Shown: positions 38,722 to 40,529 of the stretch, one piece after another
How positions within the stretch are numbered: the first letter of the stretch is position 1
Layout: each line of letters starts with the position of its first letter
NCBI RefSeq assembly: GCF_003334385.1
Contig: NZ_QOWN01000034.1
Direction: 5' to 3' (one strand)
DNA: 47,554 bases
DNA from: Escherichia coli
GTDB taxonomy: Bacteria; Pseudomonadota; Gammaproteobacteria; Enterobacterales; Enterobacteriaceae
Translations under genes and position numbers: made by a program
The notes under the pieces: model-generated
What the model saw: only the letters and a program-made list of their open reading frames with translations
Database searches by the model: none
What the model was told of the DNA's origin: nothing

Positions 38722-38766
38722 TTCATTCTCCTGGCTTGTCGCCAATAAAATTCACCTTGCGAGTTT

Positions 38767-38782
38767 GTTAGTATTCTAACAT
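38767..38782. promoter_or_regulatory. DeoR operator O2 (deoP2)
   Basis: TGTTAGTATTCTAACA, 16-bp palindrome of the DeoR operator type, 46 bp upstream of the deoC ATG. Confidence 0.75.
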
Positions 38783-38978
38783 CTACTCCGCAACACACTT
38801 CGATATACATCACAATTAAGGAAATCTACTTACAAGTTTGCATCACTGTAATGCGATCTGGTTCAAATAATTCACTTTCAAATGAATGCGTCAGTGGTGG
38901 CAAACTCATCAGGATCAAAGTGAACATCACGAAACTTCTTACAATGGCGCATCACCTTCGGCATAAAAGGAAAAGAAG

Positions 38979-40529
38979 ATGCCCACTTCTCATGAAAATG
39001 CACTGCAACAACGTTGCCAGCAAATTGTCACCAGCCCAGTGCTTAGCCCGGAGCAGAAGCGCCATTTTCTGGCACTGGAAGCAGAAAACAATCTGCCTTA
39101 CCCACAGCTTCCTGCCGAAGCCCGCCGCGCGCTGGATGAAGGTGTAATCTGCGATATGTTTGAAGGTCATGCGCCGTACAAACCGCGCTATGTCTTACCC
39201 GATTACGCCCGTTTTCTGGCGAACGGTTCCGAATGGCTGGAGCTGGAAGGCGCGAAAGATCTTGATGACGCACTCTCTCTGCTGACCATTCTTTACCACC
39301 ACGTACCGTCGGTCACATCGATGCCGGTCTACCTGGGGCAACTGGATGCGTTGTTGCAACCGTATGTTAGAATTCTAACACAAGACGAGATCGATATTCG
39401 AATAAAACGTTTCTGGCGTTACCTCGACAGAATCCTGCCAGACGCCTTTATGCACGCCAATATCGGCCCGTCTGATTCGCCCATTACCCGTGCAATCTTA
39501 CGTGCAGACGCAGAGTTGAAGCAGGTTTCACCGAACCTGACCTTTATCTACGATCCTGAAATCACCCCTGATGACCTACTGCTGGAAGTGGCGAAGAACA
39601 TCTGTGAATGTAGCAAACCGCACATCGCCAACGGTCCGGTGCATGATAAAATTTTCACAAAAGGGGGCTACGGGATTGTGAGCTGTTACAACTCACTGCC
39701 GCTGGCGGGTGGTGGCAGCACGCTGGTACGCCTTAACCTGAAAGCCATTGCCGAGCGCAGCGAATCGCTGGATGACTTCTTTACGCGCACTCTACCGCAC
39801 TACTGCCAGCAGCAGATCGCCATCATCGATGCGCGGTGTGAATTCCTCTATCAACAATCACACTTCTTTGAGAATAGCTTCCTGGTGAAAGAAGGGCTGA
39901 TTAACCCTGAACGTTTTGTGCCAATGTTTGGCATGTATGGGCTGGCGGAAGCGGTTAACTTGCTGTGTGAGAAAGAAGGGATTGCCGCGCGCTACGGTAA
40001 AGAAGCCGCCGCAAATGAAGTGGGTTATCGCATCAGCGCGCAACTGGCGGAGTTTGTCGCCAATACCCCCGTGAAATATGGCTGGCAAAAACGCGCCATG
40101 TTACACGCACAGTCGGGGATCAGTTCCGATATCGGCACCACGCCGGGCGCGCGTTTACCCTATGGCGATGAGCCAGATCCGATCACCCATCTGCAAACTG
40201 TCGCCCCGCATCATGCTTATTATTATTCCGGCATCAGCGACATTCTGACGCTCGACGAAACCATCAAACGTAATCCGCAGGCGCTGGTACAGCTTTGCCT
40301 CGGTGCCTTTAAAGCCGGAATGCGTGAATTTACCGCCAATGTCAGCGGTAACGATCTGGTTCGCGTTACCGGTTATATGGTGCGTTTGTCGGATTTAGAA
40401 AAATATCGCGCCGAAGGTTCACGCACCAACACCACCTGGCTGGGCGAAGAAGCCGCACGCAACACTCGTATTCTGGAACGCCAGCCGCGCGTGATAAGCC
40501 ATGAACAGCAGATGCGCTTTAGTCAGTAA
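38979..40529 (+). CDS. yjjI: Glycyl-radical-enzyme-like protein YjjI, 516 aa
   Basis: 516-aa ORF with good SD (AAGGAAAAG); C-terminal RVTGY glycyl-radical-type motif; followed by an overlapping radical-SAM activase gene. Confidence 0.88.
39365..39380. promoter_or_regulatory. DeoR operator O1 (deoP1)
   Basis: Perfect palindrome TGTTAGAATTCTAACA, 598 bp from O2, matching the known ~599-bp O1-O2 spacing; lies inside the yjjI reading frame. Confidence 0.75.
39644..39659. promoter_or_regulatory. DeoR distal operator OE
   Basis: TGATAAAATTTTCACA palindrome-like site 877 bp from O2, consistent with the reported ~878-bp distance of OE. Confidence 0.55.

Follow-up and report, generated by a model that had tools for sequence, protein, structure and literature searches.

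How can a single segment of DNA encode an enzyme on one strand and control the transcription of a neighboring operon on the other? This question is raised by the genes deoC and yjjI in a 47,554-nucleotide (47.5 kb) stretch of the Escherichia coli chromosome, which is referred to as the window and provides the coordinates used below. The two genes are divergent and separated by a 257 bp spacer. The first gene of the deoCABD operon, deoC (37942–38721, minus strand), encodes the 259-residue-long deoxyribose-phosphate aldolase and was identified from the list of open reading frames (ORFs), RefSeq, and a 100% tblastn match. The gene yjjI (38979–40529, plus strand) encodes a 516-residue-long glycyl radical enzyme of the YjjI family to which no function has been assigned; its identification is based on the ORF list, RefSeq, the TIGR04040 profile, and the ratio of nonsynonymous to synonymous divergence (dN/dS). 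The control region of the deo operon very probably extends across both the spacer and yjjI, with promoter deoP1 and operators O1 and OE overprinted on yjjI codons 129–227, and promoter deoP2, operator O2, and the CRP sites located in the spacer. The deo operon is a textbook system of long-range repression by DNA looping; however, few accounts mention that another gene uses two of the three operators and one of the two promoters as protein-coding sequence. The locus is the known deoCABD control region of E. coli itself and not a new member of any class. The overlap with yjjI is already known, since the operators date from the 1980s, it is visible in every annotation, and it has been stated in the literature (PMC6389913).

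Operators of deoCABD within yjjI

The whole window was searched for the palindrome TGTTAGAATTCTAACA with up to three mismatches, and shuffled sequences served as a control. There are exactly two matches, O2 and O1, compared to 0.14 expected by chance, and two or more matches were found in 0 of 100 shuffles. Operator O1 (39365–39380) is the perfect palindrome and is read in yjjI as codons 129–134, taT GTT AGA ATT CTA ACA (Y129–T134). Operator O2 (38766–38781), with the sequence TGTTAGTATTCTAACA (reverse complement TGTTAGAATACTAACA), contains one mismatch, includes the −10 hexamer TAGAAT of deoP2, and is conserved in the alignment of intergenic sequences; it has been quoted as a DeoR palindrome (PMC5326754). 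Forty-four base pairs lie between O2 and the ATG of deoC at position 38721. The third operator, OE (39644–39659), with the sequence TGATAAAATTTTCACA, corresponds to yjjI codons 222–227, caT GAT AAA ATT TTC ACA (H222–T227). It is palindrome-like, with four mismatches to O1, and the window contains four sites of such quality, compared to 1.46 expected. OE is thus weak by sequence alone, and the support for it comes from its position and conservation.

The distances measured from start to start are 599 bp between O2 and O1, 279 bp between O1 and OE, and 878 bp between O2 and OE. The separation of deoP1 and deoP2 is stated as 599 bp in the literature. The genome of E. coli K-12 MG1655, the strain used to define the operators, contains the identical three operator 16-mers at positions 4,616,385, 4,616,664, and 4,617,263, with the same spacings of 279 and 599 bp. 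There are eight differences between the window and K-12 in 1000 bp, none of which is inside any operator. The window therefore holds the features by which DeoR operators are recognized: the 16-bp palindrome TGTTAGAA.TTCTAACA or its close variant, with zero mismatches in O1, one in O2, and four in OE; the geometry, with sites at 38766, 39365, and 39644; and the overlap with the −10 element of a deo promoter, because O1 and O2 both contain TAGAAT on the strand of deo. The DeoR palindromes have been quoted as TGTTAGAA-TTCTAACA and TGTTAGAA-TACTAACA, and the formation of loops by DeoR has been described (PMC5326754).

An earlier note on this DNA proposed that three DeoR-type palindromes, including a perfect O1, reproduce the classical deo spacing of 599 and 878 bp, that O1 and OE fall within about codons 129–227 of yjjI, and that yjjI is divergent from deoC. 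The pattern search and the identity to K-12 support the palindromes, the coordinates and the MG1655 genome support the spacing, the codon positions agree with those given above, and the ORF list and RefSeq place yjjI on the plus and deoC on the minus strand. The distances of 598, 877, and 46 bp that it listed were slips of one or two bases relative to the measured 599, 878, and 44 bp, which are immaterial. The piece of sequence on which it was based began at position 38722, next to deoC, and the deoC ATG itself is at 38721. The note also considered that the palindromes might not be bound by DeoR; however, their sequences are those published as DeoR operators and are identical in K-12.

Promoter deoP1 within yjjI

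On the minus strand, O1 contains the −10 hexamer TAGAAT (39377–39372) preceded by TGT, which constitutes an extended −10 element. The transcription from deoP1 would thus start near position 39365 on the minus strand. Given this start, the block 39393–39418 (minus strand; yjjI codons 139–146) spans about −28 to −53 and would provide the −35 hexamer together with an A/T-rich UP-like stretch. The block has low synonymous diversity and includes the most conserved 16-mer of the gene. A peak of sigma70 in chromatin immunoprecipitation (ChIP) has been reported 704 bp upstream of deoC, at positions 4,614,642–4,614,709 of U00096.2, which correspond to about 39358–39425 in the window (PMC6389913). The conversion of published genome coordinates to those of the window was checked through the position of deoC at 4,615,346. 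The same publication places one of the deoCABD promoters "in an upstream gene, yjjI" (PMC6389913). The hexamer in O1 and the sigma70 peak thus bear out the placement of deoP1 inside yjjI by the earlier note. A generic promoter scan produced a single call on the plus strand (39625–39652), which, together with two terminator-like hairpins, is at the level of chance and was disregarded.

The position of these elements has a practical consequence. Deletion or codon optimization of yjjI removes deoP1, O1, and OE and would alter the regulation of the deo operon.

Selection on the embedded operators and promoter

The embedded sites were compared among 80 species-level genomic loci encoding YjjI, a sample that does not include Yersiniaceae, Erwiniaceae, and Pectobacteriaceae. 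The gene deoC is the divergent neighbor of yjjI in every Enterobacteriaceae locus with a sufficient upstream flank (it is too short in two loci), and the spacer is 221–285 bp long. In Hafnia and Edwardsiella, deoC also adjoins yjjI, with a spacer of about 464–487 bp; in Proteus, deoC is not the neighbor.

Synonymous diversity was scanned in windows of six codons along the 516 codons of yjjI from 73 Enterobacteriaceae genomes and expressed as the ratio of observed to expected values. The median ratio is 1.03, and the two lowest values in the whole gene are those of codons 129–134 (O1, 0.032) and 222–227 (OE, 0.038), followed by codons 139–146, which form the deoP1 upstream block. Synonymous diversity also drops at codons 508–516, as expected from the overlap of yjjI with the start and ribosome-binding site of yjjW, and this drop serves as a positive control of the scan. 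When 16-mers of the whole yjjI were ranked by conservation among 75 genomes, the first place belonged to 39399–39418, and the top three were completed by OE, which is identical in 65 of the 75 genomes, and O1, which is identical in 56. Nearly all of the remaining genomes differ from O1 within codon 131 alone, and two also contain the change GTT to GTG. In the codon alignment, O1 is conserved nucleotide for nucleotide, whereas flanking codons, such as those of Pro128 and Asp136, vary freely; OE is equally frozen. Synonymous divergence (dS) between genera is saturated (>1), yet the nucleotides of O1, OE, and the upstream block are conserved.

The signal is absent from lineages without the embedded sites. 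Three Proteus species, Providencia L082, and the loci L083, L084, and L087 differ at these positions in both codons and residues; one such sequence is GTG GGT GAG CTC ACC. In most of the lineages lacking the sites, deoC is not next to yjjI; in L084, deoC adjoins yjjI, yet there are no embedded sites. The low ratios, the presence of both operators among the top three 16-mers, and the loss of the signal in lineages without the sites are the marks of selection on a DNA element. The embedded operator and promoter DNA is kept by selection on its reading as DNA across Enterobacteriaceae and Hafniaceae.

Codon 131 (39369–39371) is the position at which O1 recurrently changes, from AGA to AAA, ATA, GGA, or AGG, which alters positions 5–7 of the operator and usually also the residue (arginine to lysine, isoleucine, or glycine). 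The residue is glycine (GGA or GGT) or alanine in the outgroups, glycine (GGA, resulting in an operator with one mismatch) in Hafniaceae, and arginine (AGA) in most Enterobacteriaceae, with lysine (AAA) and isoleucine (ATA) variants. The replacement of Gly131 by arginine through the change of GGA to AGA completes the perfect palindrome of O1. The driving force of this amino acid replacement, at a permissive residue, thus seems to have been the improvement of the operator. Within the E. coli population, a check of low power encountered variants that lie just outside O1.

The locus thus illustrates in quantitative terms how a regulatory code is superimposed on the genetic code in a bacterium, with synonymous sites frozen in two families, rare codons enforced, and one residue change that was seemingly driven by the operator. 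As far as our searches show, the synonymous constraint, the rare-codon signature, the phylogenetic limits to Enterobacteriaceae and Hafniaceae, and the convergent geometry described below have not been discussed in the literature; however, they are expected consequences of the known architecture. A literature search on DeoR, deoCABD, and intragenic sites found nothing.

Two further observations were made in the comparison. The spacings of O1 and O2 cluster at 596–604 bp, with outliers at 567–568, 589–592, 612, 626, and 675 bp; the scatter within the cluster is ±4 bp and the species are not independent, and no claim of helical phasing is made. Codons 296–301 of yjjI (39864–39881, TTCTTTGAGAATAGCTTC) form a fourth region of low synonymous diversity in Enterobacteriaceae, with a ratio of 0.24, a signal that Atlantibacter, Hafnia, Edwardsiella, and Proteus do not share. 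The sequence TTTGAGAA within it agrees with the DeoR half-site TGTTAGAA at six of eight positions; however, the low diversity could be mere codon bias at two-fold degenerate codons.

Predicted convergent transcription and possible effects on yjjI

The operon has two tandem promoters, P1 and P2, located 599 bp apart, and in each of them a 16-bp DeoR palindrome, O1 or O2, respectively, encloses the −10 hexamer TAGAAT. As established in the literature, multimeric DeoR bridges O1, O2, and OE by single and double DNA loops and represses both promoters, and the binding of deoxyribose-5-phosphate releases DeoR from the operators. A third deo operator has reportedly been described by Valentin-Hansen et al. 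(1986).

The gene yjjI looks to have its own promoter in the spacer, of FNR class II. The FNR-like site (38905–38918, plus strand), with the sequence CTCATCAGGATCAA, contains the half-site GGATCAAA, which is invariant across genera. The putative −10 hexamer TACAAT (38939–38944, plus strand) belongs to a conserved TACAAT/TACACT block and would direct the start of transcription to positions near 38951–38953, which puts the center of the FNR site at about −41.5, as in class II promoters. Direct activation of yjjI by FNR has been reported, with an intergenic ChIP peak at 4,615,181, which corresponds to about 38886 in the window (Myers et al., PMC3688515). This agrees with the claim of the earlier note that the reading frame is expressed.

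The two promoters would face each other. P1 would be transcribed leftward from about 39365 and yjjI rightward from about 38951, so that convergent starts would be about 414 bp apart. The leader of the P1 transcript would be antisense to the yjjI promoter, its ribosome-binding site, and codons 1–128. RNA polymerase transcribing yjjI would encounter DeoR bound to O1 and OE at about +414 and +693, respectively, and the loop between O1 and O2 would enclose the yjjI promoter. The published FNR and sigma70 ChIP data agree with the convergent arrangement of the predicted starts. Coupled or interfering regulation of yjjI and deo, which was put forward in the earlier note, is plausible from this geometry.

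No observation conflicts with the identification of the elements, but the proposed organization of the locus has weak points. The sites in the window are the published deo operators by sequence identity, and it is from this identity that binding of DeoR is predicted here. The start sites of deoP1 and yjjI are likewise predicted from their hexamers. The generic promoter scan called neither deoP1, which has a poor −35 element, nor deoP2, and it is the miss of deoP1 that counts here. Depending on the genus, O1 and O2 are between 567 and 675 bp apart, without strict helical phasing. Finally, a literature search found no report of DeoR or deoP1 affecting the expression of yjjI.

The overlap may equally well be real but without effect on yjjI. 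The embedded sites would then regulate deo alone, having ended up in yjjI only because it occupies the available DNA upstream of deoC, and expression of yjjI would be set by FNR. This possibility is consistent with the ordinary synonymous diversity of codons 1–128, which confines the additional selection to the discrete sites, and the lack of additional constraint there fits a P1 leader that itself carries no function. It is also consistent with the conserved FNR-type promoter that yjjI owns in the spacer, and with the literature mentioning yjjI, in which no DeoR-dependent expression is reported. However, promoters that converge at a distance of about 414 bp, as well as looped repressors tightly bound within a transcription unit, generally affect expression to a measurable extent, and two families have retained the arrangement. 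A hidden overlapping gene or a structured leader antisense to codons 1–128 was also considered and is unsupported, because synonymous diversity there is ordinary.

A coupling with a physiological role is a more tentative proposal, which we regard as rather unlikely. The embedded module may place the expression of yjjI–yjjW under the control of both deoxyribose-5-phosphate and FNR, possibly because the substrate of YjjI belongs to the anaerobic catabolism of (deoxy)nucleosides or DNA. When DeoR is bound, the looped repressor could act as a roadblock, or the yjjI promoter could be trapped in the loop. When DeoR is released, convergent transcription from P1 and the antisense leader could act on yjjI. 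Such coupling, if true, would offer a clue to what this orphan glycyl radical enzyme does.

Related gene neighborhoods occur in lineages without embedded DeoR sites. The gene order in L084 is deoC-deoA-deoB, yjjI-yjjW, a gene for a NupC-like nucleoside transporter, and a TatD gene, and that in L087 is deoD-deoB, yjjI-yjjW, and TatD. In the window, yjjV (42184–42966) was noted together with the TatD-family neighbors of yjjIW. The location of yjjIW beside deo, NupC-like, and TatD-family genes even where the operators are missing is a hint that YjjI is tied to the catabolism of (deoxy)nucleosides or DNA.

Constraint from DNA binding or from translation

It is very unlikely that the nucleotides of the embedded sites are frozen by a constraint internal to yjjI, such as pausing at rare codons or structure of the mRNA, rather than by the binding of DeoR and RNA polymerase. 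The blocks do contain rare codons, AGA and CTA in O1 and CGA and ATA in the deoP1 upstream block; with the protein sequence and the codon usage of yjjI itself taken as given, the probability of the nucleotides is about 1e-5 for O1 and about 5e-5 for the upstream block. The codons of O1 also encode a linker between two predicted helices: in the AlphaFold model of YjjI, which is of moderate quality with a predicted local distance difference test score (pLDDT) of 70.9, residues 130–134 connect helix 122–129 to helix 135–150. A search of the PDB with the YjjI sequence found no match. However, the frozen 16-mers coincide exactly with the DeoR palindromes known from the literature, including their spacings of 599 and 878 bp. 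Furthermore, the perfect palindrome O1 includes a −10 hexamer and lies under a sigma70 ChIP peak, and in the sampled lineages without the embedded sites, the corresponding positions of YjjI orthologs have common codons and other residues. The evidence thus favors selection on operator and promoter DNA.

Coding capacity of yjjI across the operators

The 516-residue-long YjjI is conserved over its full length, with sequence identities of 90% to the protein from Salmonella, 88–91% to those from Citrobacter and Enterobacter, 74% to that from Edwardsiella, and 64–71% to those from Proteus, Providencia, and Moellerella. Residues 11–504 match positions 1–497 of the 497 positions of the NCBIfam profile TIGR04040 (YjjI family glycine radical enzyme) with a score of 787 bits, relative to a cut-off of 498.3. 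In comparisons of E. coli with Salmonella, Citrobacter, Enterobacter, and Kluyvera, dN/dS is about 0.03–0.07 in codons 1–128, 129–227, and 228–516 alike, with dS exceeding 1. Many positions among residues 13–227 are invariant across 16 genera. The start of the gene has a conserved Shine-Dalgarno sequence and ATG at 38966–38981. Close to the C-terminus, the glycyl-radical motif (RVxG) has the form RVTGY, with invariant R462, T464, G465, and Y466.

The earlier note allowed that yjjI might start downstream of O1 and OE, so that the operators would be intergenic after all, but the conservation pattern already refutes such a misannotation: the profile aligns from residue 11, the invariant positions begin at residue 13, dN/dS in codons 1–128 is 0.04–0.07 while dS is above 1, the Shine-Dalgarno sequence and ATG are conserved, full-length orthologs occur in several families of Enterobacterales, and the RefSeq and K-12 annotations concur.

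Comparison with other regulatory systems

The deoCABD control region of E. coli K-12, with deoP1/O1, deoP2/O2, OE, and looping by DeoR, is the same locus, with the same elements, spacings, and CRP sites of P2. The elements compared do not differ, and the eight differences in 1000 positions of the surrounding DNA leave the operators intact.

Auxiliary looping operators within coding DNA are represented by lac O2 in lacZ and gal OI in galE. They resemble O1 and OE in that a secondary looping operator is located inside a reading frame, where the DNA both codes and binds a repressor. However, the genes that host lac O2 and gal OI belong to the regulated operon and lie downstream of its promoter, whereas yjjI is a separately regulated divergent neighbor. 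Also unlike those hosts, yjjI contains two operators and a complete antisense promoter.

The pR and pL promoters of coliphage 186 are an example of transcriptional interference between convergent promoters. The deo locus resembles them in geometry, with putative promoters facing each other at a distance of a few hundred base pairs, polymerases that would have to collide, and predicted transcripts that would be complementary. Unlike pR and pL, the promoters of deo and yjjI differ in the signal that they answer, which is deoxyribose-5-phosphate, sensed by DeoR, for deo and anaerobiosis, sensed by FNR, for yjjI.

Promoter deoP2 and neighboring features

Two CRP sites in the spacer are assigned to deoP2. 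CRP site 1 (38799–38814), with the sequence TTCGATATACATCACA, is a CRP-like match with two mismatches and lies in a conserved block. Judging from its position, transcription from deoP2 would start at about 38766. The site at 38852–38867, with the sequence TGCGATCTGGTTCAAA, is 53 bp from CRP site 1 and partly conserved; we take it to be CRP site 2, in keeping with the architecture of deoP2. Two of the eight differences from K-12 are located in regulatory sites other than the DeoR operators, at 38806 in CRP site 1 and at 38906 in the FNR-like site. Position 38906 belongs to the left half-site of the latter and is T in the window and G in K-12; T is nearer to the TTGAT consensus.

Sequencing of CRP-bound DNA after ChIP (ChIP-seq) in enterotoxigenic E. 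coli (ETEC) identified the motif TGTGATGTATATCGAA in the yjjI/deoC intergenic region. The same approach identified a peak within yjjI, with the motif CGTACCGTCGGTCACA, which corresponds to 39302–39317 in the window. The latter motif was rejected as a conserved element, because codons 109–114 have ordinary synonymous diversity. DeoR operators resemble CRP sites, and OE contains a TCACA half-site; the ETEC peak in yjjI may therefore reflect O1 and OE, or cross-linking through a loop to P2 with bound CRP.

The segment 38400–40600 is 100% identical to that of strain B379, and the region was found in 5424 of 5426 complete genomes. In the RefSeq annotation of the identical strain, deoB, deoA, and deoC are minus-strand genes, whereas yjjI and yjjW are plus-strand genes. 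The gene yjjW (40501–41364, plus strand) overlaps the 3′ end of yjjI by 29 nucleotides and encodes the activase of the YjjI glycyl radical enzyme, a radical-SAM protein; it was identified from the ORF list, RefSeq, and a match to TIGR04041 with a score of 398 bits.

A tandem array with a period of 101 bp, 7.8 copies, and 95% matches extends between yjjW and yjjV (41376–42166). Its unit contains a sequence similar to repetitive extragenic palindromic (REP) elements, or palindromic units (PU), GCCGGATGCGGCGTGAACGCCTTATCCGGCCTAC, and the array therefore looks like a REP cluster of the bacterial interspersed mosaic element (BIME) type. The array accounts for the run of 69-residue-long ORFs in this segment.

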